A DNA stretch of 24,000 bases from Williamsia sp. MIQD14 (GCF_051025635.1 NZ_JBPFDG010000003.1:338451-362450); one strand, 5' to 3'; numbered from the stretch's first letter, positions 1-23,406 are shown. The notes: generated by a model not told the origin, from the letters alone. Translations and numbers: made by a program.

Positions 1-233
1 CGGCGTCGTACCGCGTCGGCGAGTTCGGCGTAGGTGAGGGTGCGGTCGGGGTCGCTGACGGCGGGCGTTCCCGGCGCACGCCGCGCCGCGGCATCGACCA
101 GCTCCCACAGGGGCGCGTCGTCGACGACCCCCGCGGCACGGTATCGCCGCAGCGCGTCGGGGTCGTGGGGCACGAAGCCGGTTGCGAGATCGTCGGTCTC
201 GGGGGTCGGGCGCGGGAGTGTGGGCTGGGCCAT
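1..233 (-). CDS. mbtA: Aryl-acid (salicylate) adenylating enzyme, MbtA/EntE family, N-terminal fragment; gene continues past the left window edge
   Basis: Open-ended, so absent from the ORF track. The reverse complement from CAT at 231-233 reads MAQPTLPRPTPETDDLATGFVPHDPDALRRYRAAGVVDDAPLWELVDAAARAPGTPAVSDPDRTLTYAELADAVRR with no stop to the edge. The 'GFVP..P.....YRAAG' and 'TYAEL' segments parallel the N-terminus of M. tuberculosis MbtA as I recall it. It is divergently paired with a salicylate synthase. Confidence 0.7.
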   Translation of the reverse strand, partial: MAQPTLPRPTPETDDLATGFVPHDPDALRRYRAAGVVDDAPLWELVDAAARRAPGTPAVSDPDRTLTYAELADAVRR

Positions 234-256
234 GACGACATCCAATCACGCCTACG

Positions 257-275
257 TTAGGGTAGCCTTTCCATA
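257..275. promoter_or_regulatory. IdeR/DtxR-type iron box in the divergent mbtA-like / mbtI-like intergenic region
   Basis: TTAGGGTAGCCTTTCCATA matches the remembered 19-bp consensus TWAGGTWAGSCTWACCTWA at 16/19 positions (hand count). It lies 52 nt upstream of the salicylate synthase start and 24 nt from the divergent start. Confidence 0.6.
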
Positions 276-326
276 CCCCGATGCGCTCGCGATCCGAGTG
301 CACACGACTCCCAGGGAAGCAGACTC

Positions 327-1655
327 ATGTCGTTGACCGTCGACGCCGCACCGCCCCCCACCCCTGCCGTCGATGATCCCGCGCGAGCTGCCGATGTCGT
401 CGCCGCCTGGGCGGCGTCGGGCGAGTTCGGGGACCACGTGGTCTACGAGCGGAACGGTCGTTGGACCTTCGCGGCGGGCGTCCGATCACGGATCATCCTC
501 ACCGGCACCGAGATCCGCGTCGACGACGGCGAGCACAGTGCGGTCACCGCGTGGACGGGCGAGCCGTCGGAGGCTCTGGAGTCGGCGGTGTCGTCACTGT
601 CGTCGGGTGCGGACTGGCGCGTGTACGGCTGGGTCGGGTTCGACTTCTGCGCCGCCCGCCACGGCCTGGGAGACCACGTCGACGGCGACGCCGTCCTGGC
701 GCACCTCATCGTCCCCGAGTTCGAGGCGTACGTCGACGCCGACGGAGTCGACACCGGCACCGCCGATCCCGCCGGCGCAGCCCGCCTGCGACACCTCGCC
801 CACGTCTCGGCGGATCCCGCGGCGAGCCGCGCGGTCGATGTCGACACCGACGTCGACGACTACCGCGGTCGGGTGGCCACGGCGGTCGCCGAGATCGCGG
901 ACGGTCGCTATCACAAGGTCATCATGTCGCGGGAGGTGTCGATACCGTTCGCCGTCGACATCCCGGCCACGTACGCGCGGGGTCGCGCCGCGAACACCCC
1001 GGCGCGGTCGTTCCTGCTCTCGCTCGGCGGGCTGTCCGCGGCCGGCTTCAGTCCCGAACTCGTCGTCGCCGTCGATGCCCGGGGCGTCGTGATCACCGAG
1101 CCCCTGGCGGGCACCCGGGCTCTGGGGCAATCGGCCGAGGCCGATCTGCGGGCGCGCGACGATCTGCTGTCGGACGGCAAGGAGATCGCCGAGCACGCGA
1201 TGTCGGTGCGTGCGTGCGTCGACGAGATCGCGTCGGTCTCGCGTGACGGGTCGACCACGGTCGACGAGTTCATGGAGGTCCGTCGCCGCGGCAGCGTGCA
1301 ACACCTCGCCTCCACCGTCAGCGGTCGGCTGGACGCGGGTGTCAGCGCGTGGGACGCGCTCGCCGTGCTGTTCCCCTCGATCACCGCCTCCGGTATCCCG
1401 AAAGCCCCTGCGCTGGAGGCGATCTATCGCCTCGAACCCACCTCGCGGGGTCTGTACTCGGGTGCGGTGATGACCGCCTCGTCGACCGGCGAGCTCGAGG
1501 CCACCCTCGCCCTGCGCACCATCTTCGCCGACTCCGACCGTGCCTGGCTGCGGGCCGGCGCAGGCGTCGTCGCCGCCTCCACACCCGACCGCGAGTTCAC
1601 CGAGACCTGCGAGAAGCTCGGCAGCGTCGCGCCCTACGTGGTCCCCGCCCGGTGA
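327..1655 (+). CDS. mbtI: Salicylate synthase (isochorismate synthase / isochorismate-pyruvate lyase), MbtI/Irp9 family
   Basis: 442-aa ORF. It has long collinear similarity to MbtI as recalled: 'GRYHKVIMSREV', 'NTPARSFLL', 'SPELVVAV', 'VVITEPLAGTRALG', 'KEIAEHAMSV', 'RGSVQHLAST', 'LFPSITASGIPKA', 'RGLYSGAV', 'WLRAGAGV', 'REFTETCEKL'. Confidence 0.92.
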   Translation: MSLTVDAAPPPTPAVDDPARAADVVAAWAASGEFGDHVVYERNGRWTFAAGVRSRIILTGTEIRVDDGEHSAVTAWTGEPSEALESAVSSLSSGADWRVYGWVGFDFCAARHGLGDHVDGDAVLAHLIVPEFEAYVDADGVDTGTADPAGAARLRHLAHVSADPAASRAVDVDTDVDDYRGRVATAVAEIADGRYHKVIMSREVSIPFAVDIPATYARGRAANTPARSFLLSLGGLSAAGFSPELVVAVDARGVVITEPLAGTRALGQSAEADLRARDDLLSDGKEIAEHAMSVRACVDEIASVSRDGSTTVDEFMEVRRRGSVQHLASTVSGRLDAGVSAWDALAVLFPSITASGIPKAPALEAIYRLEPTSRGLYSGAVMTASSTGELEATLALRTIFADSDRAWLRAGAGVVAASTPDREFTETCEKLGSVAPYVVPAR

Positions 1656-2650
1656 CCGACGACACTCGCACGCCCGATTTCCCGACGGTCGAGGTGACCG
1701 ACCTCGTCAAGAGCTACGGCGGGGTGCGGGCGCTGGCGGGCATCTCGTTCACCGTCGCGCGCGGCGAGGTGCTCGGGCTGCTGGGTCCGAACGGCAGCGG
1801 CAAGACGACGACGGTGTCGGTGCTGTCGACATTGCAGCGGCCCACGTCGGGCACCGCCCGGATCTGTGGGCACGACGTCGTCGCCGACGCGGCCCGTGTG
1901 CGCGAGCTGATCTCGCTCACCGGCCAGTACGCGGCGGTCGATCCCGGCCTCACCGCGGCCGAGAACCTGGCGGTGTTCGGCCGACTGACCGGCCTGCGCG
2001 GCCGTCACCTCACGAGCCGCATCGACGATCTGGTCGACCAGTTCGACCTCGGCGCCGTCCGCGGACGGCGGGTGGGACACCTCTCCGGCGGGATGCGGCG
2101 TCGGGTCGACATCGCCGGCGCGCTCGTCACCCGACCGGAGGTCGTGTTCCTCGACGAACCGACGACGGGCCTCGACCCGCGCAGCCGCGCCGCCGTCTGG
2201 GACACCGTCGCCGGGTTGCGCGACGCCGGCATCACGGTGGTGCTCACCACGCAGTACCTCGAGGAGGCCGACCGCCTCGCCGACCGCATCGTGCTGCTCG
2301 ATCGCGGCGCCGTGGTGGCGACCGGCAGTCCAGGACAGCTCAAGTCCCGTGCCGGGGGAGCGGTCTGCGAGATCACCGTCGCCGACGGCGAGAACGCCGC
2401 CCGCGCCACCGCTCTGCTCACCGGCTTCGACGTCGTCGACACCGGCGACGACCCGTCGGGGCCGCCAACCGAACCGGGGCGGGCGCGGCTCGTCGTCCGT
2501 GCCCCCGACGGGGTCACCACCGTCGGTGAGGTCATCGCACGGCTCGACGGTGTCGGCGACGACGGGCGCGGCGTCGAGGTCGTCGACATCGGTCTGCGCC
2601 GCCCCTCGCTCGACGAGGTGTTCCTCCAACTCACCGACGCGCCGGCATGA
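1652..2650 (+). CDS. ABC transporter ATP-binding protein (DrrA-like, ABC-2 exporter subfamily)
   Basis: Walker A 'GPNGSGKTT', signature 'LSGGMRRR', Walker B 'VVFLDEPTTGLD'. Start chosen at GTG 1652, which overlaps the mbtI-like stop as GTGA. The Arg-rich extension from 1349 in the track looks like read-through of an off-frame. Confidence 0.9.
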   Translation: MTDDTRTPDFPTVEVTDLVKSYGGVRALAGISFTVARGEVLGLLGPNGSGKTTTVSVLSTLQRPTSGTARICGHDVVADAARVRELISLTGQYAAVDPGLTAAENLAVFGRLTGLRGRHLTSRIDDLVDQFDLGAVRGRRVGHLSGGMRRRVDIAGALVTRPEVVFLDEPTTGLDPRSRAAVWDTVAGLRDAGITVVLTTQYLEEADRLADRIVLLDRGAVVATGSPGQLKSRAGGAVCEITVADGENAARATALLTGFDVVDTGDDPSGPPTEPGRARLVVRAPDGVTTVGEVIARLDGVGDDGRGVEVVDIGLRRPSLDEVFLQLTDAPA

Positions 2651-3429
2651 CCGCTGTCCTCGACGACCGGTCGTCGGTCGGCCTGGTGTCGGCGTCGGCC
2701 ACGTTGGCGGGCAGAAAGATCCGTGCCGCCGTCCGGTCCGGCGACGCCACCTTCGCGCTGCTGAGCCCCGCGGTGTTCTTCCTCTGCTTCCACACCCCGC
2801 TGCACCGCCGGTTCGAACTCGGTGGTGGCGACTACGCGCAGTTCCTCACCCCGCTGATCCTGGTGCAGGCCGGGCTGTTCGCCGCGATCGCGGCCACCGA
2901 GTCGGCGGGTGCCGATGCCCGTGCGGGCACCCGCATGCGGATGATGTCGATGCCGATCTCCCGTCTCGCGCCGGTCGTGGCCCGCATGACGTGGGTGTCG
3001 GTGCGGATGGTGCTGTCGATCGCCGCCGGTGTCGCCGTCGGCGCGGTTCTCGGCTTCCGCTTCGACGGATCATCCGTCGACACAGCGCTGTTCGTGTGTC
3101 TGCTCGTCGCGTTCGCGGTGTCGGTCAGCCTGCTCACCGATGCGGTGGGCACGATCGTGACCGGCTCGGCCGCGGTCGCCGGCGTGCTGATGATCCCGCA
3201 GCTCATCCTGGTGATGGCCTCGACCGGACTCGTTCCCGCCGAGGGCTTCCCGGGCTGGGCGCAACCGTTCGTCCGCAACCAGCCCGTGTCGGTGCTGACC
3301 GACGCGCTGCGTGCTCTCGCCGAGGGACGTGACATCGACGTCGTCGCGATCGGGTTGTGGTCGCTGGGCCTGTTCGCAGCCGGAGTTCTCGCCGTGAGCA
3401 TCGCCGGACGACGGCAGTTCGCCCGATGA
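2647..3429 (+). CDS. ABC-2 type transporter permease (first of two)
   Basis: 260-aa hydrophobic protein with multiple predicted TM stretches ('AVFFLCF', 'LILVQAGLFAAIAA', 'VLSIAAGVAVGAVLG', 'LFVCLLVAFAVSVSLL', 'LMIPQLILVMA', 'LWSLGLFAAGVLAV'). ATGA overlap with the upstream ATPase stop. Confidence 0.8.
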   Translation: MTAVLDDRSSVGLVSASATLAGRKIRAAVRSGDATFALLSPAVFFLCFHTPLHRRFELGGGDYAQFLTPLILVQAGLFAAIAATESAGADARAGTRMRMMSMPISRLAPVVARMTWVSVRMVLSIAAGVAVGAVLGFRFDGSSVDTALFVCLLVAFAVSVSLLTDAVGTIVTGSAAVAGVLMIPQLILVMASTGLVPAEGFPGWAQPFVRNQPVSVLTDALRALAEGRDIDVVAIGLWSLGLFAAGVLAVSIAGRRQFAR

Positions 3430-4241
3430 CCGCCGGACACGCTGCGGCACAGCTCACTCCGGTGCGCGGCTCGGTGGGTCTCACCCGCCAATCGGTCGTG
3501 CACGCGACCGCGCTGCTGCGCACGTGGTCGCGCGATCCCGGCATCGTGGTGCAGGCCGTCGTGTTCCCGGTGTTCCTGCTGCTGATGTTCCAGCTTGTGC
3601 TCGGCAAGACCGTCACCTCGATGGGCAGCGGCGACAGCATCGTGGGCAACACGGGACTCGTCGCCCTCGTCGGCGCGCTCTACGGGACCGTCGCCGCCGC
3701 GCTGACCGTGATCGCCGACCGCGACTCCGGCGTCCTCGCGCGACTGTGGACCCTGCCGGTGCACCGGTCGGGCTTCCTCCTCGGCCGTCTGCTCGCCGAG
3801 GCGATACGTACCGCGATGGGGACCGTCGTCCTGTTCGCGGTCGCCACGACGATGGGTTTCCGTTTCGATCAGGGGATAGCCGCCGCGGTCGGGGCCCTCG
3901 CCGTACCGATGGTGTTTGGTGTGGGCGTGGCCATCCCGGTGATCGCTCTGGCGACGGTCGCCGCGGGACGCGAGGTGGTGCAGCTGCTCGGTGGCGCGTT
4001 CCTGTTCCTGCTGTTCTTCACCACCGGGTTCGCCCCGCTCACCGAGTACCCGGGGTGGATCCGGCCTGTGGTCGCGCATCAACCCATGAGTCCGGCGATC
4101 GACGCGATCGCCGGCCTCACCGACGGCGGCCCCGTCGCCGCACCCCTCGCGGTCACCGCGGCCTGGACGCTCGGCCTCGCGATCGTGTTCGGCCCGGTGG
4201 CGATGCGCGGCTACCGGCGTGCCGCCGCAGGACCCCGATGA
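3426..4241 (+). CDS. ABC-2 type transporter permease (second of two)
   Basis: Start taken at ATG 3426 (ATGA overlap with the previous stop), giving 'MTAGHAAAQL...'. Multiple TM stretches ('VVFPVFLLLMFQLVLG', 'GLVALVGALYGTVAAAL', 'VVLFAVATTMG', 'FLFLLFFTTGF', 'AAWTLGLAIVFG'). Size and position are typical of a DrrB-like partner. Confidence 0.8.
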   Translation: MTAGHAAAQLTPVRGSVGLTRQSVVHATALLRTWSRDPGIVVQAVVFPVFLLLMFQLVLGKTVTSMGSGDSIVGNTGLVALVGALYGTVAAALTVIADRDSGVLARLWTLPVHRSGFLLGRLLAEAIRTAMGTVVLFAVATTMGFRFDQGIAAAVGALAVPMVFGVGVAIPVIALATVAAGREVVQLLGGAFLFLLFFTTGFAPLTEYPGWIRPVVAHQPMSPAIDAIAGLTDGGPVAAPLAVTAAWTLGLAIVFGPVAMRGYRRAAAGPR

Positions 4242-4300
4242 CCCGACCTCCCGTCCACGCAGTCGACCCCACGACGACTCACAGCAAAGGAGCACCACCC

Positions 4301-4576
4301 ATGACCGAACCCACCGCTGACCCCGGCGCAGACCGCGTGCACGACGAGCTCCGCGACATCCTCGCGAACGACCTCGATCTGTCCCCCGACCACGTCACCG
4401 GCTCGGCCCGCCTCGTCGACGACCTCGGTCTCGACTCGGTCGCCGTCGCGATCGGTGTCGTCGCCATCGAGGAACGCCTCGGCGTCGCCCTCACCGAACG
4501 CGAGATCTTCGAGAGCGCCTCGGTCGCCGACCTCGAGCAGGTCATCCGGTCGCGTCTGGCCGTGGTCGGCGGATGA
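4301..4576 (+). CDS. Stand-alone acyl/peptidyl carrier protein (MbtL-like)
   Basis: 91 aa. Phosphopantetheine attachment motif 'DDLGLDSVAVAIG' with Ser46 at 4436-4438. SD 'AAAGGAG' lies 7-13 nt upstream of ATG 4301. Only the last 91 codons of the 350-aa track ORF look coding. Confidence 0.85.
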   Translation: MTEPTADPGADRVHDELRDILANDLDLSPDHVTGSARLVDDLGLDSVAVAIGVVAIEERLGVALTEREIFESASVADLEQVIRSRLAVVGG

Positions 4577-5865
4577 CCGAGACGACCGAGGTCGCAGACG
4601 TCGCGACGGATGCCGCGGCCGGCCCGACCGAGTACGGCCCGCCGGATTTCACCTACCTGCACATGGACACCCCTGCGCGGCCGATGCACTGGTCGATGGT
4701 CCTCGAGATCGCCGGCGGTGACGCCCCGGTGGGCATCGACGAGATCCGCGATCGGGTGCGCTCGCGGGTCGCGCGCTACGACGTGTTCGGCGTGGGCGTG
4801 CGTGGCGGGCGGTGGCGTCGTCCCGACATCGTCGTGACGCCCGCCGACGCGATCGACATCGACCACCACGTCGTCGCCACCGAGGTGGCCGACGCCGCGG
4901 CCCGTGACCGGATGATCGCCGAGCTGTGCGCCACCCACCTACGACGTCCGGATCCGTTCTGGCACATCACCCTGATGACCGTCGCGGAGTCGGGTGAGCA
5001 GCTGCTGGTGCTGCGGGTGCACCACAGCCTGTCCGACGGCCTGGCCGGTGCGGCGTTCGCCGCGCTGCTCGCCGACGGGACGCCCGAGCAGCTCGCCGAG
5101 TTCGACCGGTTCGGCGCCGGTCCCCGCTTCCGCGTCGGCGACGTCGATCCCGACGTGCTCGCCGACGCCCGCGCCGCCCACGACGAGCAGTGGAAGGCCG
5201 GCCGGTCCGGTCGCGGCTGGCCCGCGCTCACCAGATCCGGCCGCCGCGAGATCGCGACGGTGTCGGTGTCGACCCGCGACCTCCGTCGTGCCGCGAAGCG
5301 CCACGAGGCCACGGTGCACGAGTTCGTGCTGGGTGCCGTCGGCCGAACCCTCAGCGCGCATCCGCCGACCGCGACCGGTCCCGAGAACATCCGGGTGACC
5401 CTGCCCGCCACCCTCGATCCCACGTTCCGCCACACCGGGAACGCCGTGTCGGTGACACTGCTCAACCTCGCGGGCGACGACACCGACCTCGACCGGCAGA
5501 TCGCCCGGAGCCGGGAGCAGTTGTCGCTCATCGAGACCCGGCGCGCGGCACTCGCACTCGCCGCCACCGGGCACCCGTCGCCGCCGTGGCCGGTGATGCG
5601 CGCCATCGTCGGGGCCTCGATGTCGCGGATGGCGCCCGACATCCACATCGGGGTGAATCCCGGGTTCTCCCGGGTGCGTTCGGTGCTGGGGCGTCGGATC
5701 GTCTCGCTCACGCCGCTGTCGCCGCTGGGCGGGTACTCGTTCTCGGTGACCTCGCTGGTCCTCGGCGACCGCACCACGTTCGGGATCGTCACCGACCCGC
5801 AGGCCCTCCCCGGCTACGCGGCGCGCTTCGCCGCCGCCTTCGACGAGCTCCTCACCGCCCCCTGA
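4573..5865 (+). CDS. WS/DGAT-family (wax ester synthase / diacylglycerol acyltransferase-like) acyltransferase
   Basis: 430 aa. N-terminal 'D..YLHMDTPARPMHWSMVLEI' resembles the WS/DGAT N-terminus ('D..FL..E....PMH'). Catalytic 'HHSLSDG' (HHxxxDG) is at 5020-5040. ATGA overlap with the carrier-protein stop. Confidence 0.75.
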   Translation: MTETTEVADVATDAAAGPTEYGPPDFTYLHMDTPARPMHWSMVLEIAGGDAPVGIDEIRDRVRSRVARYDVFGVGVRGGRWRRPDIVVTPADAIDIDHHVVATEVADAAARDRMIAELCATHLRRPDPFWHITLMTVAESGEQLLVLRVHHSLSDGLAGAAFAALLADGTPEQLAEFDRFGAGPRFRVGDVDPDVLADARAAHDEQWKAGRSGRGWPALTRSGRREIATVSVSTRDLRRAAKRHEATVHEFVLGAVGRTLSAHPPTATGPENIRVTLPATLDPTFRHTGNAVSVTLLNLAGDDTDLDRQIARSREQLSLIETRRAALALAATGHPSPPWPVMRAIVGASMSRMAPDIHIGVNPGFSRVRSVLGRRIVSLTPLSPLGGYSFSVTSLVLGDRTTFGIVTDPQALPGYAARFAAAFDELLTAP

Positions 5866-5886
5866 CCCGCCAGTTGGACACGTAAC

Positions 5887-5969
5887 GACCGCAGTCGGGC
5901 ACCGCTTTGTTCGGCCGCCCGCGATCTGAAAGCACAGATTACGAACGACCGACCGACCCGTAGAAGACC
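5887..5969 (+). repeat. Left copy of a degenerate direct repeat bounding the low-G+C insertion (tentative)
   Basis: Collinear short matches with 7592-7658: 'gaccgcag' (5887-5894 / 7592-7599), 'acgaac' (5941-5946 / 7622-7627), 'cgaccgaccc' (5950-5959 / 7639-7648), then 'tagaagacc' versus 'tagaccc'. The spacing between blocks differs. Confidence 0.25.
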
Positions 5970-6115
5970 GGCCTCGGAAGCCGCGCCTGCGCCTATTTAA
6001 TCGGCAGCGCCAACGGAGTGCGGCATCCAGTCGGAGGTGATATCCCGGGACTCACGACCCGCACGGTCGTCGCCACGGCGGCTGGCCAATTGCGGTGCGT
6101 CACGGAAGGCCCTGA

Positions 6116-6334
6116 GTGAGCGCGATTATCGATTCCAAAGGTCCGCTGTCGATCGATCTGGTGTCCCTGCTCGGCTTCGCCTTTCACGAAACGAGTGTCG
6201 GCGACATGCCGAGCATTCGGGACGAGATGTCGCAGGCCGTATCATTGAGCGTGCCGATTGCGGTCCAGTGGGCCATCATTCCCCCGAGTCGGGGGCTGTC
6301 CCTTGGAGGAGGAAAGTTGAATGTTTCTTCGTGA
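6116..6334 (+). CDS. Hypothetical small protein (72 aa), questionable
   Basis: GTG-initiated ORF directly after an in-frame TGA. Its third-codon positions are noticeably more G/C-rich than in the alternative frame 6037-6348 (hand inspection). It ends 14 nt inside the next ORF. No recognisable motif and no clear SD. Confidence 0.25.
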   Translation: MSAIIDSKGPLSIDLVSLLGFAFHETSVGDMPSIRDEMSQAVSLSVPIAVQWAIIPPSRGLSLGGGKLNVSS

Positions 6335-7313
6335 CTACCTATATGTAGATTTGGATAAAGTTCGGGCGTTGATATCGCAAATACTTGATGGAGTTCCCGA
6401 ACTGTCGACTCGCGTGGAAAGAAAAGAGAAAGACCGAGAGTTAAAAAATCGATACATTGGGGGCGTGTCGACGAAAAACGCAGATGAGCAATCGTACGAG
6501 AATAGTCTCTCGGACTCGTTGTTTCGAATCCTCGAAGAGGAACTGGAGCCGCTAGGGCTACTGGTAGATGTTTCACAAGAGCTCGCCGCGTCTAATGATT
6601 GGGGGGCACTTGAGGATACGATCTACCCGGGCGCCATCCTACGAATTTCGGCGCCAGCCACTCTTTTTCACCCGGGGCATCTTTCGAATGCGTTGGTTGG
6701 TATTGCGACGGCTGCGCACGGGTTGTCGACACTGGGAGACGTCGATGCGCCTCCTCCGGCTGGCCCTGGCGGGGGTAAGCGCAAAAATCAGCCTAGAAAC
6801 CGAGCGCTTCCTCAAAAGGTTGCGGGCGGCAACCCGGAAGATTTGTTGCCCTCTGAGGCCAAGATTCCTGTCCTTGACATACCTCGGGAAGAGCTTTCAG
6901 GAATGATTCAGCTTATTCGGGGTCTTTACGACAACGGTGTGCATCTCACAATGAAGCCGTGTGGCTCCGATGGCCCGGTGGTCTCGGCGCGCCTCGAAAG
7001 TGGAAGAAGGTTCCTTGATGCATCGCCTGAGATACTGTTCTCTCGCTACGGCTCAGGCGAACAGGTCTGGACCGCGGTCGGGCTGGTCGGACAGTTAGGC
7101 ATAACTGCCCCTGATGCCGATCCGCCGAGAGCTGTAGACGACGATGGAAACATAAGCCGTGCGTCCACAATGGGACTGATCGACTGGTTTCTCTCGATTG
7201 CGGGCACGTCAGGTCTGATTGACCAGCCTGTCAAGCCTAGCTTTTCATTCGTGCCACTTGCAGTCTATAGATCGATTGGACAGCCTGAGGTGCAGCCGAG
7301 TCTGCATGCGTAA
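6321..7313 (+). CDS. Hypothetical protein (330 aa), no assignable family; cargo of the low-G+C insertion
   Basis: Longest ORF in the islet. Strong SD 'GGAGGAGGA' (6305-6313) lies 7 nt before ATG 6321. The composition looks protein-like and is not Arg/Gly/Pro-skewed like the shadow ORFs. N-terminal 'MFLRDYLYVDLDKVRALISQILDG', central Gly/Pro/Lys/Arg-rich linker 'PPPAGPGGGKRKNQPRNRALPQK'. No TM segment, signal peptide or catalytic motif recognised. Confidence 0.75.
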   Translation: MFLRDYLYVDLDKVRALISQILDGVPELSTRVERKEKDRELKNRYIGGVSTKNADEQSYENSLSDSLFRILEEELEPLGLLVDVSQELAASNDWGALEDTIYPGAILRISAPATLFHPGHLSNALVGIATAAHGLSTLGDVDAPPPAGPGGGKRKNQPRNRALPQKVAGGNPEDLLPSEAKIPVLDIPREELSGMIQLIRGLYDNGVHLTMKPCGSDGPVVSARLESGRRFLDASPEILFSRYGSGEQVWTAVGLVGQLGITAPDADPPRAVDDDGNISRASTMGLIDWFLSIAGTSGLIDQPVKPSFSFVPLAVYRSIGQPEVQPSLHA

Positions 7314-7591
7314 TAAGAAGTTATGTGTATACGCGACTAGTAACGAAAGTCAGAGAGCGAAAGAATCTCAAACAAATTTCAAGGCGTCGGATTCGTACGC
7401 GCGGCAACTGGCAGTGTTAATTTTCGTGTGTCGCGCATATCCTAGGGTGGTGGGACCCTCGTCTTGACCCGCGCCTCGCGGTCCGCTCGAACTAGCTTTG
7501 AAGCTGTTCGGCGGCCCCCGCGACCAACGTCGAACCCAGCAGTACATCCGAATCGTGCCTGTGTCTTCTTTCCGCAAGTTTAAGCGGCAGT

Positions 7592-7658
7592 GACCGCAGA
7601 CTGCCATTTGCACTCGCAAGAACGAACTTCGAAAGTTTCGACCGACCCTTCTAGACCC
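7592..7658 (+). repeat. Right copy of a degenerate direct repeat bounding the low-G+C insertion (tentative)
   Basis: See the left copy (5887-5969). It also contains a small hairpin, ggcagt-gaccgcag-actgcc (7587-7606). Confidence 0.25.
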
Positions 7659-7759
7659 CTCTTCATGCCATGCTGAACAATTGCTGGCACTGTCACGTTC
7701 GTCAGAAGTCGCAGCGAGATCCAACCGGGCCGTCAGCACTTACCGCCCAAATGGGGCGT

Positions 7760-12100: not shown

Positions 12101-12140
12101 GTCGCATCAGCTCGAGCCGTGATTCGTCCAGTACGCTCAC
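9129..12140 (-). CDS. Fusion protein: NRPS-type condensation domain (N-terminal) + PLP-dependent group II amino-acid decarboxylase (C-terminal)
   Basis: C domain spans about aa 45-480 (nt 10701-12008), with C1-like '[13 protein letters not shown]' and C3 '[12 protein letters not shown]' (HHxxxDG at 11586-11606). The decarboxylase spans about aa 500-975 (nt 9216-10643), with 'GGSYSNL', '[13 protein letters not shown]', 'HVDAAYG' and the PLP-lysine motif '[13 protein letters not shown]' (Lys796 at 9753-9755). No carrier or adenylation domain. GTG start in a GTGA overlap with the upstream stop. Confidence 0.9.
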
Positions 12141-14464: not shown

Positions 14465-16305
14465 GGGCGTTGCGCTGCCGACGGCGGGGAGGGGGCGTAC
14501 CGCGCGATCGGGTTCACGAGGCGGTGGTCGGTGTCGAGCAGGGCGGCGTAGGAGTCACCGAGATCCACCATGCGGCGACTGTTGCCGAGCTGCAGGCGGT
14601 TCATGTGGATGGCCCCGAAGTCGGGTGCGAACAGGTCCCACCGGGCGAACCGGTCGGCGAGGTCGGGGTGGTCGCCGATGTAGGCGGTCACGCTGTCGGC
14701 GACGGTCTTCCAGAACGAGGCGTCGTCGCACAGACCGGCCTGGTGCAGGATCCCGGCCAATGGTCGGAGGAAGTCGTCGAAGACGTCGGACAGGATGCCC
14801 AGGTTGCCGATGGCGTCGTCGGTGGGGACGACCGCGCGGCGGCAGGACTCGGGCAACCCGGGGGCGTCGTCGCCGATGGTGACCTCCTCGCCGATGTCCT
14901 TGAGGATCGCCCGCACCGGCACGCCGTCGGCGAGCACCAGGATCAGGTTCTCGCCGTGCGGCGAGAACTTCAGCCGGTACCGGTAGAGGAGGTGGATGAT
15001 CGGGTGCAGATAGGTGCGCAGGTAGCGCGCGAGCCATGCGGTGGCGGACAGTCCGGACCGTTCGACGAGCGCACCCACCAGCGGGTCACCGCGGTGGTCG
15101 ATGTGCAGCAGTGCCGCCATCGTCATCAGCTGCTGGTCGTCGTCGACGAGACCGACGGGGCTCTGCCGCCACAGCGCCGACATCAGTTTCCGGTACTCCG
15201 ATCCGGGCTCGGTGACGCTCTGCAGCACCGGGTTGCGGTAGCCGATCGCGACGACCTCGAACACCATCGTGAAGCCCACGGACCGCAGGAACGGGTCGTC
15301 GCCGACCCGGTCCCGGACCCAGTCGTTGATGAGCGGGGTGGTGCGCATGTAGTCGGCCGACATCCCGCGGGTGAAGCCCATGTTGGTGATCGACAGGGCG
15401 AGTTTGACGTAGTGCCTGCGGGGTTCGTCGGCGTTGAACAGCGTGCGGATCGACTGCTGTGGTCGATACAGGTCGGTGCCCTCCCCGACGCACACCAGCG
15501 TGCCCTCGGCGAGTTCGCGCGCGAAGACGCGAGCGACCTTCTCGTTCCACTGCCACGGGTGCACGGGCAGGTAGAGGAAGTCGGCGGGATCGAGTCCCCG
15601 CGAACGCAACTCGGCGTCGAACTCGTCGAGGGTGGTCGAACCCAGTTCGCCGCGCAGCAGGTCGTGGTGGTCGTGGTCGGACATGGCCGCGACCTCGCAG
15701 TGTCCGCGGGGCGCCGCGACCCACACCAGTCGGCAGTGCTCACCGCGCTCGGGTGCATAGCGGGCGACGTCGTCGGAGCTGAACCCGATACGACCGGCAT
15801 TGGCCACGATGCAGGGATGTCCCTCGGTCATCGTCTGCTCGACGGTCTGGAAATCCGCCCGGGCCAGTTCCGCTGCGGGGACACGGAGGTGGTCGGGTCG
15901 ATCGGCGCCCAGGCCGAGCGTGTTGACGAACTCCTCGAGATAGGCGGGCACGGCGTCGGCGGCGATCGCGAGGCGCTCGCGCAGGTCGAGAAGCATCGCG
16001 ACCGGATCGACCGGCACGTCGGCGCCGTCTACCAGGCGGCGCATCGACGGCCCGTCGATCACCCAGTTGTCCAGCGACAACACCTCGGCACGGAACACGT
16101 ACTCGGTGCTTTGGTCGTCGGAAACGACCAGATACATCGAACCGGCACCCGACGCCCCGGCGTCGTCGGGACCGGGCCCCAACGGGATCGGGTGGATGAT
16201 CTGTTCGTGGGCGAACTCGGCCAGCACCTTGCGCGCCATACGTCGCCCGTACACCGCGGCCATGTGGGCGCGGCCGTCGGTGACGGGTGACACCGTGGCG
16301 GTCAC
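14461..16305 (-). CDS. IucA/IucC-family NRPS-independent siderophore (NIS) synthetase
   Basis: Family hallmarks 'LPVHPWQW', 'SIRTL', '[15 protein letters not shown]' and '[11 protein letters not shown]'. Start chosen at GTG 16305 (GTGA overlap with the NRPS stop). The track ATG at 16347 would overlap the NRPS by 46 nt. Confidence 0.9.
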
Positions 16306-19300
16306 CGGGTGGCCGTCTCGGTCGCGGCGAAATCCTCTGCTGTGCAATAGCTCAGACGCGCCGTCTTCGCCCCGACGGGGTGATCGCCGGCGACGCGGAA
16401 CCCGACCAGGTCGTTGAGTCGATGAACGGCGGTGTTGCGGACGTCGGGTTCGACGACGACGCGCCGCGCGCCGGCCTCGGTGAACGCGGTCCGCATGATG
16501 TGGCGCATGACCGCTTCGGTGAAGCCGGCCACCGGGGTGTCGGTCGGGGCGACCAGCAGGTGCATGCCGACGTCGCCGGGGGAGTGGACGTAACCGGTAC
16601 CCGCATCGGCCAGTTCGCTCGAGAGGGGTTCGTAGAGTTCGAAGAGGAACTGCGGCTCGGCCCCCACGCCTCCGACACGGTCCTCATCCCCGCCGACACC
16701 GACGACGCCGAGTCGCATCCCGAAACCGGTCGCGTCGGCATGGGTGATCAGGGCGACGACCTCCTCGCGGGTGGCCGACGACATGTCCCAGAAGTGCGAC
16801 TTGGGGTGGGTGAGCCACCGGTGCACGAGGTCGACGTCGGTGTCGAGATCGATACGACGATGGGTGATCTCGCGGTCGGTGGTGTCCGGGTCGCTGTCGG
16901 CCCGGTCGAGTTCGGAGGCGACCTCGCCGGCCGAGAGCCCGAGCACATCGAGCATCACCTCGGCGACCTCGGTGATCGCCGCACCGTGCAGTTCGTCGAG
17001 CCGTGTCGCGACACCCGCGACGGATCGGCGGGTGAAGACGTCGGCCACGGTCACCGAGGCCGCGGCACCGGGTACGGCGAGCCACCGGCGGATCTCGGCG
17101 ACGAACCGTGTGGCGAGCACCGAATCCCCGCCCAGGGCGACGAACTCGTCGGTGACGCCGATCGGCCGTGTGTCGAGGATGGTCTCGAGCACCGTCACGA
17201 GGGCCTTCTCCACCGGCGTGCGCGGGGCAATCGACGCCGACGACCCGGCGTCGTCGAACTGCTCTGCGATACGCGCCCGATCGAGTTTGCCGTTGGCGGT
17301 CAACGGGAGCCGGTCGACGACGGTGATCGATCGCGGGATCATGTGCGCGGGGAGCAGTGCACCCAGATCGGCGACGAGACGCGGGGGTTCGGAGGTTTCT
17401 GTGGTCGGTCCGGTCACCGCGGCCCGCAGGTCGCGTCCGTCGGTCCAGGCCACGGCGGCCGACACCTGCTCCAGGCGTAGCAGTGCGGCCTCCACCTCGC
17501 CGAGTTCCACGCGATGCCCGCGGATCTTCACCATGTGGTCGTCGCGGCCGAGGAAGTCGAGGAACGCACCCGGCAGGTACCGCGCGACATCCCCGGTGCG
17601 GTACCACCGCACGTCGTCGACCTCGACGAAACGCTCCGCGGTGCGGTCGGTGTCCCCGCGATACCCCGCGGCCACCCCGTCGCCGCCGATCCAGAGTTCA
17701 CCGGGCACGAAGTCGGGCCGATCGCGGCCGATGGCGTCGACGACCCGGCAGCGCACGCCGCGCAGGGGGGTGCCGTACGGGACGAAGCCGCTGTCCTCAC
17801 CGACGTCGGCCAGTTCGCAGACGGTGGAGTGGATCGCGGTCTCGGTGGTGCCGCCGAGACCCGCGGCGCGGACGCCCGGTACCTGCTCGGCGATGCGCCG
17901 CAGATGGCCCACCTCGACACGGTCGCCTCCGGTGAGCACGACCCGCAGCGACGCGGGCATGTCGGTGATGTCGAGGAGCATCCCGAGAACCGTGGGGACG
18001 CAGTTCAGTACGGTCACCGACGCCTCGTGGAGCGCCCGAGCCCAGGAGTCGACGCGGGTGGTGGGGTCGTCGTCTCCGACGACCACCGATCCGCCGACGG
18101 CGAGCAGTGCGAACACGTCGAACACCGAGAGGTCGAACTCGAGGGACGACACCATGAGCGCGCGATCGGATGCGTCCAGCTCGTATCGGTCGGTGAGGTC
18201 GGTCAGCGTCGCGACCGCGGCGCGATGGGGGACCTCGACACCCTTCGGGGTACCGGTCGACCCCGAGGTGAACAGGATGTAGGCGAGCGAGTCGGGGCCG
18301 CTCGGGTCGTCGGAGGGGTCGAGTGGTGCGGCCGAGGACGTGTCGTCGAACACGACGACCTCGATCGCGGTGTCGGATACGCGGTCGGGCCGGTCGGTGA
18401 GCACCGCCGATGGGGTCGCCACCGCGACGATGCGGTCGCGGCGATCGGCCGGTTGCGACAGCGAGATCGGTACGTAGGTGGCGCCGGCCGCGAGAACGCC
18501 GATGGCCGCGACGATCTGCGGTGCGCCCTTGGGCATCGTCACGACGACGGTGTCGCCGGCGCCGACACCGGCTGCGCGCAGTGCCCCCGCCACCCGTCGT
18601 GCACGGTCGGCGAGTTCGCCGTGGGTCCAGTTGGACTCGTCGTCGACGAGCGCGGCGGTGTCGGCCCGGGATGCGGAGCGATCGAGGATGCCGCGGTGCA
18701 GCGTGCCGTCGAAGATGTCGGTGTCGGGCAGCGGATGTTCGACGGCGTGACGCTCGGCGATCACCTCGGACGGCACGCTCGAGGGTGCCGGTCGCCCCCA
18801 GTCGCCGATGACGAGCAGGTCGAGCAGCGTGACGTAATGATCGAACATCGACTGCGCCACAGCAGGATCGAGATCGGAGGCGCGGACGTCCCAATTCAGC
18901 AGCAATCCGCCGTCGATCTCGGTGACCTGCGCGTCGAGGAGGACCTGGGGGCCCTGCGACACGATCCAGGACGGGGTGCCGAACACCTCGGTCACCGCGG
19001 GGGAGAACAGTTCGCCGAGCCCGAGTGCGCTGGTGAACACCACCGGCGACACCACCGGTTCGCCGCGCCGCCGGCTGAGGTCGCGCAGGACGTCGAGGCC
19101 GCTCACGGTGCCGTGCGCCGCGGCGTCGTGCATCGCCGCACGCATGTCCACGGCGCGCTCGACGAGGGTCCGCTCGGCCGTCAGATCGACGGCGACGACG
19201 ATGGACGACGTGAAGTCGCCGACCACCCGGTCGACGTCCGCGTGGGTCGCGTCGCGATCGAAGAGGGGAACCGTCAGCAGGAAACGGGATGTGGCCGAGT

Positions 19301-20390
19301 GTGTTCCGACGGCCTCGGCGAACATCGCGGCGACCGCGGTCGCCGGTGTGACGCCGTGTGCGTGGGCGTGGGTCTCGAGGCGCTCGCGATCGGCCGCGTC
19401 GATGACGTGGTGCAGCCGCACCGTCGTGGCGCCGCCGTCCGCGCCGGAACCGGTCGGGTCGGTACGCGGCAGCTCCGGTGGTCCGGGGAGGTCGTCGAGA
19501 CGCGCCCGCCACCAGGCGATGTCGGCGTCGCGGGCCGGCCGCGACGCGCGTGCCGCCGACAGGGTGCGGAAGTCGGTGCCCAGCGGGGTCAACTGCTCGC
19601 CGCGGTGGAGGCGGGCCAGGTCGTCGACGAGGACGCGGAAGCTCATGGCGTCGGCCGCGATCATGTCGACGTCGAGATGTACCCGGGTGCGGCCCCGGGG
19701 TAACAGGGTGAGCTCGACGCGGATCACCTGACCGTCCTCGACCGGCAGCATCGCGTGGGTGTTGGCCCGGCGCTGCTGCGTGAGGAACTCCCCGACCGCC
19801 TGCTCGGACCGGCGTCGGAGGTCGTGGACGCGCACGGCCTCCGGGTGTGCATCGCCGACGCGCTGGGTGCCGTCGGGTGCCACCGCCACGCGCGTCATCG
19901 GATGCCGCGCGAGGAGAGCGGCGACGGAGGCTCGGAAGCGGTCCGGATCGATTGCCGTGCCGTCGAACTCGACGTACAGGTGTGCGGCGACACCGCCGAG
20001 GTCGTGGCTGTCGGAGCGGCCGACCCAGTACGCGTGCTGCATGGGGGCGAGCGGAAACGGCGAGTCGTCATCGGCGGCCGCGTCGGTGGGATGCACGTCG
20101 CCGCGTCGCGGTTCGTTCGCCTCGGCCACGCCCGTGTCGGGGCCCGGTCGGTCGAGCAGACGCGACCACGCCACGATCGTCGGCTCCTGCGCCAGTCGCG
20201 CGAAGTCGATGTCGTACCCGCGTTTGCGCCACTGACCTGCGAGCCGCATCATCCGCAGCGAATCGAGCCCCTGCGCGATGAGGTCGCTCTGCGGATCGAG
20301 ATCGGCCGGGTCGACGCCGAGTGCCGCTCCGACCGCCGACACCACGTCGGTCGACGCGCCCTCCGTCGACACCGCTGTATCGACCACCAT
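16302..20390 (-). CDS. Non-ribosomal peptide synthetase, ArCP-Cy-A-PCP-GNAT (IucB/MbtK-like N-acyltransferase) architecture
   Basis: 1362 aa. SD 'GAAGGGGAG' precedes ATG 20390. ArCP: aa ~10-78, '[12 protein letters not shown]', Ser44 (nt 20157-20363). Cy domain: aa ~110-530, '[15 protein letters not shown]' and DxxxxDxxS 'DMIAADAMS' at 19641-19667. A domain: aa ~575-1040, '[17 protein letters not shown]', 'FDLSVFDVF', 'GLGGTTE', '[14 protein letters not shown]', 'YRTGDVARY', '[14 protein letters not shown]', 'NGKLDR'. PCP: aa ~1055-1130, '[11 protein letters not shown]', Ser1090. C-terminal aa ~1175-1355 (nt 16326-16868): '[15 protein letters not shown]' and '[17 protein letters not shown]' match MbtK/IucB ('RRIMFDPDHRNTATRRL' in MbtK as recalled). 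No TE or reductase domain. Confidence 0.9.
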
Positions 20391-20424
20391 GGTGACTCCC
20401 CTTCGTTGTCGGCTCCCGTCGAAC

Positions 20425-20448
20425 TTAGGTTAGGTTAGGCTTAATATA
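20425..20448. promoter_or_regulatory. IdeR/DtxR-type iron box(es) in the divergent NRPS / FAAL promoter region
   Basis: TTAGGTTAGGTTAGGCTTAATATA contains three tandem TTAGG pentamers. Two overlapping 19-mers (20425-20443 and 20430-20448) each match TWAGGTWAGSCTWACCTWA at 16/19 (hand count). The site overlaps a -10-like TAATAT (20442-20447). It is 35 nt from the NRPS start and 33 nt from the FAAL start. Confidence 0.65.
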
Positions 20449-20480
20449 CAAACGGCGGGGATGCGGAGAGGTGTACGTCG

Positions 20481-22160
20481 ATGTCAGTTGTTCCGACCGA
20501 TCGCGAAGTGGCACAGCATGATCGGCGTGGTGGCGACAGCGGCCGTCGGGATTGGGCCGGACTGATCGACACGGCGATCAGCGAGAGCGACGCGGTGTTG
20601 TCGGCTTTCGACGTGTCCACCGAGCAGTGGGTGCAGCGGCCGTGGCGGGCGATCCGGGAGCGCGCGATAGAGATCGCGACCTGGATCGACGCCACCCGAG
20701 GTGGGCGTCCGGCGGGGGCGGCCGTCGGACTGATCGGCGATCCAGGTCCCGACCTGGTCGCCGCGGTGCATGCGTCGTGGCTGTCGGGATCGGCCGTCTC
20801 GATCCTCCCCGGACCGGTGCGCGGGGCCGACGACGCGCGGTGGGCGGTGGGCACCGCGGCACGCTTCGCCGGGATCGGGGTCGACATCGTGCTGGGATCC
20901 GGCCCCCACCTCGAGGCGCTGATCGCGGTCGACTGTGCGCTGCACATCGAGCACGTCGACCTCGTCGGTGTCGGCATCGACACCGGCGCCCACCGTCCGG
21001 TCGGTCTCATCGGCGATGCGCCGGCGATCCTGCAGGGGACCGCCGGATCCACCGGCGACCCGAAGACGGCGGTGCTCACCGCCGACGCGGTCGCCAAGAA
21101 CACCGCGGCGCTGGTCGACCGTCTACGCCTCGACGCCGCCGACGACATCGGTCTGAGCTGGTTGCCGCTCTACCACGACATGGGACTGACGTTCCTCGTC
21201 GCCGGGATGTACACCGGTATCCCACTGTGGATCGCGCCGAACTCGGCCTTCGCCGCGTCGCCGTTCCGGTGGCCGCAGTGGCTCACCGACTCGTCCGCGA
21301 CCATCACCGCGGCCCCGAATTTCGCCTACGACATCGTCGGTCGCTACGGCCGACTGTTGGCGGGTGCCGATCTGTCCCGCCTCCGGGTCGCGCTCAGCGG
21401 CGGCGAACCCATCGATCCCGATGCCTTCGATCGCTTCCTCGCCCACGCGTCGGCGGTCGGATTCGATCCGTCCGCCGCGACACCGGCCTACGGCATGGCG
21501 GAATCGGTCTGCGCGGTCACGGTTCCCGCACCGGCCGAGGGTGCACGCTACGACGCGGTGAGCGTGCGAGGTGACGACGGGACGACCATCGAGCGGCGCT
21601 ACCCGCTGCTCGGCGAACCGTTGGAGGGCATGGAGATCCGTGTCGTGGCCTCCGATGTCGAGGTGCCGGCGATCGACGGACGCGACGTCGGGGGTGTGGA
21701 GATCCGCGGAACCTCGATGATGTCGGGCTATCTCGGGCACCCGCCGGTGCAGCCCGGCGACTGGTTTCCGACCGGCGACCTCGGATACCTCGTCGACGGC
21801 CGACTCGTCATCTGCGGTCGGGCGAAAGAGATCGTCATCGTCGCCGGTCGCAACCTGTTCCCCGTGGAGATCGAGCGTGCGGCCGCCGGGGTCGACGGCG
21901 TCCGACGCGGAGGGGTGGTCGCCGTGTCTCGGGGGTCGGGACGTCCCGGACTCGTGGTCGTCGCCGAGACCCGCACCTCGCCTGCCGAATTGCCACGGTT
22001 GCGCGCCGCGGTGATGTCGGCGGTGGCCTCCGACTGCGGGGTGGTCCCCACCGACGTGGTGTTCACCGCCCCCGGGTCGGTGCCGCGCACGACCTCGGGC
22101 AAGCTCCGCCGCCTCGCGACCCGCGAACTCGTCGAGTCGGGGGCGTGGGCGTGGGCGTGA
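20481..22160 (+). CDS. Fatty acyl-AMP ligase / acyl-CoA synthetase family (FAAL, MbtM/FadD33-like)
   Basis: 559 aa. '[14 protein letters not shown]' (AMP-binding core), '[11 protein letters not shown]' (typical of actinobacterial FAALs), 'YGMAES', 'FPTGDLGY', '[20 protein letters not shown]', 'TSGKLRR'. SD-like 'GGAGAGG' lies upstream of ATG 20481. Confidence 0.85.
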
Positions 22161-23317
22161 CCGTCGTCGCGCCCACCGGCACCTACCAGCACCTGCTCGA
22201 CCGGGTCTTCGACGACGAACTGCGCGGGTGGGTCGACGAGGCGGAGGCCACGGCGCACTTCCCGCGCCGGCTCATCGAGAGACTGGGCGCCGCAGGTGTG
22301 TTCGCCGAGAAGTGGGGTACCGCGACGACCCCCGACATCGACAGGCTGGTGGCGCTGTCGTTCGCGCTCGGCCGGCTGGGGTCGGCGGGCATCGGGGTCG
22401 GGGTCAGTCTGCACGATTCGGCGATCGCGATCCTGCGCCGCTTCGGTGGCCGTTCGGAGACGCTGCGGGAGGTGGCGCAGGCGGCCATCGCGGGTGAGGC
22501 CATCCTGTGTCTCGCGGCGTCGGAGTCGTCGGGTGGGTCGGACCTCCAGATCGCGCAGACCTCGATCACGAGGCAGGACAATGGGTTCTGGGTGCGTGGC
22601 GACAAGAAGTTCGTCTCGCTGTCGCCGATCGCCGACCACATCCTGGTCGTCGCCCGCGACTCCTCGGCCGACGGCTCGACGTCCCACGGCAACGTCGCGC
22701 TCGTCCTGGTGCCGACCCGCGAGGTCACGGTGCACGCGCCGTGGGCCAAGGCCGGCGCCGCCCCGCTCGACACCGCCGCGGTCGAGATCGACACCTGGGT
22801 CCCCGCCGAGAACCTCATCGGCCGTCCCGGAACGGGTCTGGCGATGGTCAGTTGGGGGTTGGCACACGAGCGGCTCTCCATCGCCGGGCAGGTGGCCGCG
22901 GCGTGCGAGATGGTCATGGGCATCACGGTCGCCCGCATGCAGGACCGGACCCAGTTCGGGAGCACGCTCTTCGAGCACCAGGCGCTGCGCCTGCGGATGG
23001 CGGATCTGCATGCGCGCGTGGAGATGCTGCGCCTGTCGCTCACCGGGGTCGCGGCGACGGGGCGCCTCGACGTGCGCACCGCGTCGGCCCTCAAGGTGAC
23101 CGCCGCCCGCCTCGGCGAGGAGGTCATGGGCGAGTGCATGCACATCTTCGGCGGTTCGGGATATCTCCCCGACGAGACGCCCCTGGCCCGATGGTGGAGG
23201 GACATGAAGCTGGCCAGGGTCGGCGGTGGCGCCGATGAGGTGCTGTGGGAGCTCGTCGCCGCAGGGATGCGACCCGACGTCGACGGCTATCGGCGGTTCG
23301 CGGACGCGATCAGCTGA
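22157..23317 (+). CDS. Acyl-CoA/acyl-ACP dehydrogenase (MbtN/FadE14-like)
   Basis: ACAD features: '[14 protein letters not shown]', '[20 protein letters not shown]', 'ERLSIAGQ', '[25 protein letters not shown]', 'FGGSGY'. Start ambiguous among in-frame GTGs at 22145, 22151 and 22157. I chose 22157 because it forms a GTGA overlap with the FAAL stop. Confidence 0.85.
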
Positions 23318-23332: not shown

Positions 23333-23351
23333 TGAGGTTAGCCTCACCTAT
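23333..23351. promoter_or_regulatory. IdeR/DtxR-type iron box upstream of the membrane-anchored protein gene
   Basis: TGAGGTTAGCCTCACCTAT matches TWAGGTWAGSCTWACCTWA at 16/19. Its core AGGTTAG-C-CTCACCT is a near-perfect palindrome. It overlaps a -10-like TATATT (23349-23354) and lies 56 nt upstream of ATG 23407. Confidence 0.65.
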
Positions 23352-23406
23352 ATTCTGAGCACACCGCGGGCGACATCACCCGCACCGCGACGAGGAGACC
23401 ACACGA

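Follow-up and report, generated by a model that had tools for sequence, protein, structure and literature searches.

Nocardichelin B is built from salicylate, serine, two N-hydroxycadaverines, succinate and tetradec-2-enoic acid (RetroMol preprint). The ncd gene cluster, a hybrid combining genes of the non-ribosomal peptide synthetase (NRPS) type with those for NRPS-independent siderophore (NIS) synthesis, was identified in Nocardia carnea NBRC 14403 (Fisk et al. 2025, ACS Chem Biol 20:1435, as relayed by the RetroMol preprint), and a highly similar cluster in Nocardia sp. NBC_01329 has been tied to nocardichelin B, as a feature at m/z 716.459, by liquid chromatography-tandem mass spectrometry (RetroMol preprint). 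Among the genes named there, ncdA encodes the aryl adenylating enzyme, ncdB the salicylate synthase and ncdQRS three ATP-binding cassette (ABC) proteins, and NcdE carries an acyltransferase domain, NcdE-ATx (RetroMol preprint). In the account that the same preprint relays, NcdE-ATx accepts a range of acyl-CoAs and is promiscuous for acyl chain length, and a shorter nocardichelin analogue was seen in NBC_01329 (RetroMol preprint). NcdF is an NIS synthetase proposed to join N-hydroxy-N-succinylcadaverine (HSC) to a fatty-acyl analogue (DesD paper). The genes of a homologous locus in Gordonia rubripertincta CWB2 (GCWB2_02925-03005) are induced under low iron, with nocardichelins proposed as the product (PMC12161575, S7 Table); this strain is reported to make desferrioxamines B, A1 and E (PMC12161575), and DesG-type amidases have been proposed to de-succinylate HSC, freeing N-hydroxycadaverine for a different acyl cap (PMC12161575, PLoS Biology). 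Here, 24,000 nucleotides of Williamsia sp. MIQD14 (GCF_051025635.1 NZ_JBPFDG010000003.1:338451-362450), referred to as the window, were compared with these systems. The window is very probably the Williamsia orthologue of the ncd cluster, most likely making nocardichelin or a close congener under iron limitation.

Fifteen real genes were picked out by third-position G+C content (GC3-guided gene calling), in a window of ~71% G+C with a dip to 57% around 6-8 kb, and were named by Pfam and NCBIfam profile scans of the window proteins (Table 1). The same scans bear out the gene content of a preliminary description of this DNA, which had listed an aryl-capping set (an MbtA-like fragment, an MbtI-like synthase and an NRPS with aryl carrier protein, cyclisation, adenylation and peptidyl carrier protein domains, ArCP-Cy-A-PCP), an NIS set (a pyridoxal phosphate [PLP] decarboxylase, an N-hydroxylase, a GNAT and an IucA/IucC synthetase) and a lipid-tail set (a carrier protein, a fatty acyl-AMP ligase [FAAL] and an acyl-ACP dehydrogenase [ACAD]) accompanied by a WS/DGAT acyltransferase and an N-terminal nucleophile (Ntn) acylase. 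A single amino-acid A domain is present, and neither a thioesterase nor a reductase domain was detected in the window by these scans, as that description had also stated. Everything on its list was recovered, but the list omitted a condensation (C) domain, an ABC ATPase with two ABC-2 permeases (1649-4241, plus strand), an insertion and the IdeR-like boxes.

The further claim that no characterised cluster has this content does not hold. The published ncd cluster has the same gene set and a known product, and the structures of NcdF and NcdE are the top matches in the Protein Data Bank (PDB). When searched against all PDB chains, the NIS synthetase of the window matched NcdF best (9NOM, 6e-248), followed by DesD (2e-166), and the last 192 residues of the NRPS matched NcdE best (9NIJ-9NIM, 2e-62); MbtK gave a much poorer match (1e-4). 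The protein encoded in two N. carnea assemblies (L005 and L006) agrees at 100% with crystallised NcdF across the 560 residues visible in these loci, which identifies them as the published ncd cluster. Both loci also hold counterparts of the penicillin-amidase-family protein, C domain, decarboxylase, N-monooxygenase, acyl carrier protein (ACP), ACAD, WS/DGAT-like enzyme and FAAL, together with an ABC-2 trio. Every biosynthetic gene of the window and its ABC-2 trio were matched in the N. carnea locus at 45-72% identity, with the FAAL at 35%, and identities to the producer strain NBC_01329 are similar. The features of the ncd cluster found in the window thus comprise an NcdF-type synthetase, an NcdE-type NRPS with a C-terminal ATx domain, salicylate supply, cadaverine-hydroxamate supply, a carrier-less C domain and a lipid-tail set.

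Orthology and domain content are accompanied by intact motifs and by synteny. All catalytic motifs are intact, namely DxxxxDxxS of the Cy domain, HHxxxDG of the C domain, the carrier serines, the PLP lysine and the Ntn serine. On the minus strand, the genes for the NRPS, NIS synthetase, amidase, fused C domain and decarboxylase (C-DC) and N-monooxygenase overlap end to start and are therefore taken as one operon. Two proteins of the window, the NRPS and the WS/DGAT-like enzyme, match proteins of Williamsia sp. MIQD14 (family Nocardiaceae) at 100% identity. A genome scan gave two further Williamsia loci, those of W. herbipolensis and Williamsia sp. Leaf354 (L001/L002), which are fully syntenic with the window at 84-91% protein identity (complete genes), while the Nocardia loci (L003 and L004 besides the two N. 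carnea assemblies) and the Gordonia loci were reached via NRPS and WS/DGAT homologues. Across the Williamsia, Nocardia and Gordonia loci the gene set stays together with its order shuffled, so the co-occurrence of these families is not due to chance.

Table 1. Features of the window, numbered from its first nucleotide. Identities are to the Nocardia loci (NRPS from L003, salicylate synthase from L004, ABC-2 trio from L005).
Feature	Position	Strand	Basis or remark	Identity
Aryl-acid (salicyl) adenylating enzyme, N-terminal fragment, NcdA/MbtA counterpart	3-245	-	Runs off left window edge	
IdeR/DmdR-like box, weak	252-275		5-6 mismatches; divergent promoter of adenylating enzyme and salicylate synthase	
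Salicylate synthase, NcdB/MbtI counterpart	327-1655	+	Chorismate_bind 5e-75; TIGR03494	52%
DrrA-type ABC ATPase, probable exporter subunit	1649-2650, start codon uncertain	+	ABC_tran 5e-32	72%
ABC-2 permease a	2647-3429	+	ABC2_membrane families	64%
ABC-2 permease b	3426-4241; reading frame opens 3357, likely ATG 3426	+	ABC2_membrane 5e-15	71%
Free-standing ACP, MbtL-like	4301-4576	+	DLGLDS motif; NCBIfam PRK05883	62%
WS/DGAT-like acyltransferase, distant family member	4573-5865	+	HHSLSDG motif; WS_DGAT_cat 4e-10	55%
Low-GC insertion (~55-57%), 1.8 kb, not part of the pathway	~5904-7744		Between convergent WS/DGAT-like and N-monooxygenase genes	
DUF6414 open reading frame, 330 aa	6321-7313	+	DUF6414 8.5e-11	
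Flavin N-monooxygenase, DesB/NcdJ-position counterpart	7760-9235, start probably near 9139	-	Lys_Orn_oxgnase 2e-97	69%
C-DC fusion protein, 1003 residues	9129-12140	-	C domain N-terminal half, PLP decarboxylase C-terminal half	
PLP decarboxylase domain, DesA-like lysine decarboxylase	9129-10508	-	Pyridoxal_deC 7e-53, residues 588-906; PLP lysine in DLHK	68%
C domain, proposed chain-releasing amide synthase	10701-12140	-	HHIAVDG; Condensation 1e-19	45%
Ntn penicillin-amidase-family protein, DesG counterpart	12137-14464	-	Penicil_amidase 4e-143; nucleophile in GSNAW	59%
Type C NIS synthetase, NcdF orthologue	14461-16347, start probably near 16300	-	IucA_IucC 1e-77; FhuF 4e-35	63%
NRPS, ArCP-Cy-A-PCP-GNAT, NcdE orthologue	16302-20390	-	Pfam domains, motifs	63%
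GNAT N-acyltransferase domain at NRPS C terminus, NcdE-ATx equivalent	16383-16850	-	Acetyltransf_8 2e-31	
Overlapping IdeR/DmdR-like boxes	20425-20448		4-5 mismatches; divergent NRPS/FAAL promoter	
FAAL, MbtM type	20481-22160	+	NF004510 MbtM	35%
ACAD, MbtN-like	22145-23317	+	Best model MbtN equivalog	61%
Best IdeR-like box of the window, TGAGGTTAGCCTCACCTAT	23333-23351		3 mismatches; just past ACAD stop codon	

The genes for the aryl cap are recognisable individually. The fragment at the left edge gave a weak AMP-binding match (Pfam) and agrees at 75-76% identity with the beginning of a 562-aa gene in the two other Williamsia loci. The product of that gene is a full-length adenylating enzyme of DhbE/MbtA type, for which the best NCBIfam model is DHB-AMP ligase (524 bits, below the cut-off); it shares 55% identity with its counterpart in the ncdA place of a Nocardia locus (L004). 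The adjacent salicylate synthase scored 487 bits with the TIGR03494 equivalog model against a cut-off of 325. The NRPS is homologous over its full length to N. carnea P0017, with the same five-domain architecture; its Cy motif reads DMIAADAMS and its carrier serines lie in GLDS and GGDS. The nine variable positions of the A-domain pocket, located with a GrsA segment as reference by anchoring on motifs, read DLFNLGLIH in the window and DLFNIGLIH in N. carnea and Gordonia, with eight of nine identical. The same anchoring rule yields DLYNLSLIW, which we take to be the cysteine code, for the second module of an Amycolatopsis NRPS. Serine is the likely substrate of the A domain, as judged from its sequence.

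A route to the product can be proposed on this basis. The product itself, the activities of NcdF and NcdE-ATx and the role of DesG are taken over from the papers, and we infer the sequence of reactions, the assignment of serine and the parts played by the C domain and the WS/DGAT-like enzyme. Chorismate would be converted to salicylate by the salicylate synthase, and the aryl adenylating enzyme would load salicylate onto the N-terminal ArCP of the NRPS. The single A domain would place serine on the second carrier, and the Cy domain would condense and cyclise the two to a PCP-bound 2-hydroxyphenyl-oxazoline. In the hydroxamate half, lysine would be decarboxylated to cadaverine by the decarboxylase domain and N-hydroxylated by the flavin monooxygenase, giving N-hydroxycadaverine, which the NRPS-fused GNAT would N-acylate with succinyl-CoA to form HSC, with fatty acyl donors, or with both. 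FAAL, ACP and the MbtN-like dehydrogenase would supply a 2-enoyl fatty acyl-ACP, the chain of which may be handed to N-hydroxycadaverine by the WS/DGAT-like enzyme. The NcdF-type synthetase would couple the succinyl carboxylate of HSC with the free amine of the N-acyl-N-hydroxycadaverine, and the C domain would free the salicyl-oxazoline from its carrier by linking it as an amide to the primary amine that is left, in place of a thioesterase. Release by a carrier-less C domain would explain the missing thioesterase and reductase domains. The DesG-like amidase probably de-succinylates HSC, balancing the two monomer pools, and the ABC-2 trio would export the product. The preliminary description had proposed a salicyl-(methyl)oxazoline joined to an N-hydroxy-N-acyl diamine or lysine-derived unit with NIS-type condensation, which is essentially the structure of nocardichelin B, but the releasing C domain was missed.

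In the hydroxamate half, the N-monooxygenase shares 68-70% identity with its counterparts in the Nocardia and Gordonia clusters, the decarboxylase domain is 68-72% identical to separate decarboxylase genes of the same two genera, and the amidase matched PDB 35sz at 4e-193. The C domain is 44-46% identical to free-standing C proteins of N. carnea, NBC_01329 and G. rubripertincta, and gave generic C-domain matches only when compared with the PDB.

In the window, the C domain and the decarboxylase form one polypeptide. The NRPS-GNAT fusion is common to the window and N. carnea, while the C-DC fusion is not, the two parts being separate genes in the Nocardia and Gordonia loci. A word-indexed homologue search with the C-DC protein gave four proteins. 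Further C-DC fusions were found in W. herbipolensis, Leaf354 and more distant loci ~66% identical (P0001-P0003, L009, L010), and no other protein matching both halves was present among the top 150 hits of an exhaustive search of 1.84 billion representative proteins. Other decarboxylase fusions in that search were GNAT-decarboxylase, decarboxylase-monooxygenase and aminotransferase-decarboxylase. Siderophore-type examples among these representative proteins include a GNAT-decarboxylase of 740 aa and a decarboxylase-N-monooxygenase of 928 aa (P0205, P0206), and DAHP-synthase and aminotransferase fusions were also seen. On the sequences compared, fusions among such pathway enzymes are common and the C-DC fusion is lineage-restricted (Williamsia-type). 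At 18170-21256 of the Nocardia locus L004, the separate C-domain and decarboxylase genes share a reading frame and lie 82 bp apart, and the tblastn alignment of the Williamsia fusion runs straight across this gap. Loss of a stop codon could, from the shared frame and short gap, easily create such a fusion.

A possible reading of the C-DC fusion is an assembly order unlike that proposed for Nocardia. The C domain would directly capture cadaverine made on the same polypeptide, giving salicyl-oxazoline-cadaverine. This intermediate would next be N-hydroxylated; the NRPS-fused GNAT would then succinylate it and the NIS synthetase would extend it. This order is improbable; if it did apply, the hydroxylase and the acyltransferase would act on the NRPS product and not on the free diamine.

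The lipid-tail genes lie on both sides of the minus-strand operon. The ACP scored 84 bits with PRK05883 (cut-off 72), the FAAL 661 bits with NF004510 (cut-off 621) and the ACAD 621 bits with the MbtN equivalog model, just under its cut-off of 700; the ACAD is the likely source of the 2-ene of the tail. For the WS/DGAT-like protein, the Pfam WS_DGAT_cat score was 40 bits against a cut-off of 23.6 and the NCBIfam TIGR02946 score 98 bits against 310, PDB matches were weak (3e-5), and identity to the in-cluster orthologues of N. carnea and NBC_01329 was 55-61%. The ABC-2 trio probably corresponds to the published ncdQRS.

Comparison of the FAAL with its counterparts (L005 11303-12940 and L008 8005-9669) separated two lineages. 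The Williamsia and G. rubripertincta proteins have ~60% mutual identity, whereas those of Nocardia and G. crocea are 34-37% identical to Williamsia, a division which suggests replacement of the FAAL gene during the history of the cluster.

Several observations weigh against assignment of the window to nocardichelin biosynthesis, or at least against an unaltered product. At ~35% identity to the N. carnea FAAL, the ligase may select a different tail, and the A-domain pocket differs from that of N. carnea at one position (L/I). With the FAAL set aside, no component has diverged further than the C domain (45%), the acceptor of which is putative. The WS/DGAT-like enzyme lies far under the TIGR02946 cut-off, and its putative role is a guess. 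No IrtAB-type importer and no siderophore-interacting reductase or protein was found within the window, and the iron boxes discussed below fit the consensus used weakly. A literature search returned no report of a nocardichelin cluster or of its product chemistry in any Williamsia strain.

A structurally distinct congener, with another chain length or saturation, a threonine-derived methyl-oxazoline or another assembly order in place of nocardichelin A or B, is conceivable, though we consider it unlikely; a change confined to the tail is plausible in view of the divergent FAAL. The FAAL, 60% identical to that of the G. rubripertincta cluster and 34-35% to those of Nocardia, would be consistent with such a congener, as would the L/I pocket difference, the divergent C domain with its unique fusion to the decarboxylase, and the chain-length promiscuity relayed for NcdE-ATx together with the shorter analogue of NBC_01329. 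However, the pocket change is the only one among nine positions and is conservative, the tailoring enzymes are all one-to-one orthologues with no extra tailoring gene in the window, and variants in chain length would still belong to the nocardichelin family.

Independence of the two halves, with the des-like genes making desferrioxamines and the salicylate and NRPS genes a separate small aryl-oxazoline, is very improbable. Desferrioxamine production by G. rubripertincta CWB2, which carries the homologous locus, would fit such a division, as would the rank of DesD as second-best PDB match of the NIS synthetase and the desA/B/C/D-like set embedded in the locus. Yet NRPS, NIS synthetase, amidase, C-DC protein and N-monooxygenase share one overlapping operon, the des-type acyltransferase forms part of the NRPS polypeptide and the C domain part of the decarboxylase polypeptide, no other release domain is present in the NRPS, and orthologous clusters have been linked to nocardichelin itself. 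Desferrioxamine-type by-products beside the hybrid are possible. A mycobactin/nocobactin-type cluster can be dismissed as scarcely credible, for despite the MbtI-, MbtB-, MbtL-, MbtM- and MbtN-like genes the window has no polyketide synthase (PKS; MbtC/D), no lysine-activating MbtE/F modules and one amino-acid A domain, a decarboxylase and NIS synthetase are present instead, and the nearest structural homologues are NcdF and NcdE rather than MbtK. Nocardichelin or a close congener is thus retained as the expected product of the window.

Five iron-box-like sites were found at three places, all intergenic, versus 0.54 expected by shuffling of the window with the consensus used. An Ala/Pro-rich open reading frame with one predicted membrane segment begins ~55 bp downstream of the box with the fewest mismatches and runs off the window (23405-23998). 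It had no Pfam match, and identity with the Mtb12_C protein found in a similar place in N. carnea was ruled out, the two proteins being unrelated by comparison. From its position, this frame may be an iron-regulated gene.

Within the low-GC insertion, the DUF6414 frame is flanked on either side by ~400 bp of apparently non-coding DNA. The insertion is absent from W. herbipolensis and Leaf354, in which the flanking genes lie ~150 bp apart. For the DUF6414 protein, PADLOC, plasmids and phages yielded nothing and PHROG only a weak match, and no flanking or terminal repeats, tRNA or Rfam match were found for the insertion. The 150 bp spacer of the other two Williamsia loci (L001 14310-14449, L002 14301-14439) is an array of CAGTTGGGCAC motifs. 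Six copies are exact, of which four point one way and two the opposite way, and together with diverged copies they make up a large palindrome; the motif was found nowhere else in the 23 kb Williamsia loci. The insertion in the window lies mid-array, with parts of the array at 5871-5902 and 7764-7774. The array may act as a bidirectional terminator or as a hotspot for insertions. The junction beside the WS/DGAT-like or monooxygenase gene varies by genome (L009 6376-8760, L011 2938-4659, L008 22970 onward). A metagenomic relative has DUF222 (HNH-type) and SnoaL/LEH genes there, G. crocea has a DUF222 gene, G. rubripertincta has a hypothetical gene besides one for a binding protein, and two Williamsia genomes have none. 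Genes appear to have been gained repeatedly at this site.

The hybrid chemistry of this locus is already published, and no new biosynthetic logic is present here. The window extends the nocardichelin pathway to the genus Williamsia. Nocardia, Gordonia and Williamsia keep the same gene set but differ in how its members are ordered and fused. The GNAT-NRPS and C-DC fusions, which are natural ones, suggest which enzymes cooperate and could serve as constructs for study of the hand-over from NRPS to NIS, and the C-DC fusion may say something about NRPS/NIS coupling.

Compared with more distant systems, the window shares with mycobactin mbt-1/mbt-2 of Mycobacterium tuberculosis a salicylate synthase, a salicyl-AMP ligase, an MbtB-type ArCP-Cy-A-PCP protein and MbtL/MbtM/MbtN-type tail genes. 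It differs from mbt in lacking a PKS, MbtE/F modules and the incorporation of lysine, and in hydroxamates that are diamine-derived and NIS-joined; the Pfam scans detected no ketosynthase or PKS acyltransferase domain in the window. The proposed release step is reminiscent of VibH of vibriobactin biosynthesis, a free-standing C domain which acylates a free polyamine, passing a carrier-bound aryl acyl group to a soluble primary amine with no thioesterase needed. In principle, release by a C domain without an attached carrier is the same in both, whereas here the acceptor would be a diamine chain that contains hydroxamates, and the C domain shares its polypeptide with a decarboxylase; phmmer found no sequence relationship between VibH and the C domain of the window.

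The desferrioxamine genes of Streptomyces (desABCD with desG) likewise encode a decarboxylase, an N-hydroxylase, an Acetyltransf_8 enzyme and a type C NIS synthetase, which make and join HSC, with the DesG amidase also in common. In contrast to the window, des has no NRPS, salicylate or lipid-tail genes, and DesD oligomerises or cyclises HSC whereas NcdF is proposed to join it to a fatty-acylated unit. Classification of the window as a plain desABCD cluster was rejected: all four homologues are present, but desC is a domain of the NRPS and desA is fused to a C domain, all in one operon with the NRPS.

The locus of G. rubripertincta CWB2 contains the same gene families in near-identical overall order, with the FAAL divergent from the NRPS. 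It differs from the window in that its GNAT (DesC), C domain and decarboxylase are each encoded by a gene of their own, the place of the insertion is taken by genes for a binding protein and a hypothetical protein, no ABC-2 trio lies between salicylate synthase and ACP, and the ACAD adjoins the ACP. Fusion of the GNAT to the NRPS is seen in Williamsia, Nocardia and some Gordonia; the G. rubripertincta group encodes the GNAT separately.

The N. carnea ncd cluster, in which the C domain and decarboxylase are separate genes, has its lipid-tail genes in one operon (ACP-ACAD-WS/DGAT-FAAL) that is split in two in the window, and an IrtAB-like importer beside the NRPS that the window does not have; the 1.8 kb foreign insertion and the FAAL of 35% identity also distinguish the window. 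These differences aside, the two clusters have in common the full gene set, with most proteins at 55-72% identity, the ABC-2 trio, the NRPS-GNAT fusion and the core order of NRPS, NIS synthetase, amidase, C domain, decarboxylase and N-monooxygenase.

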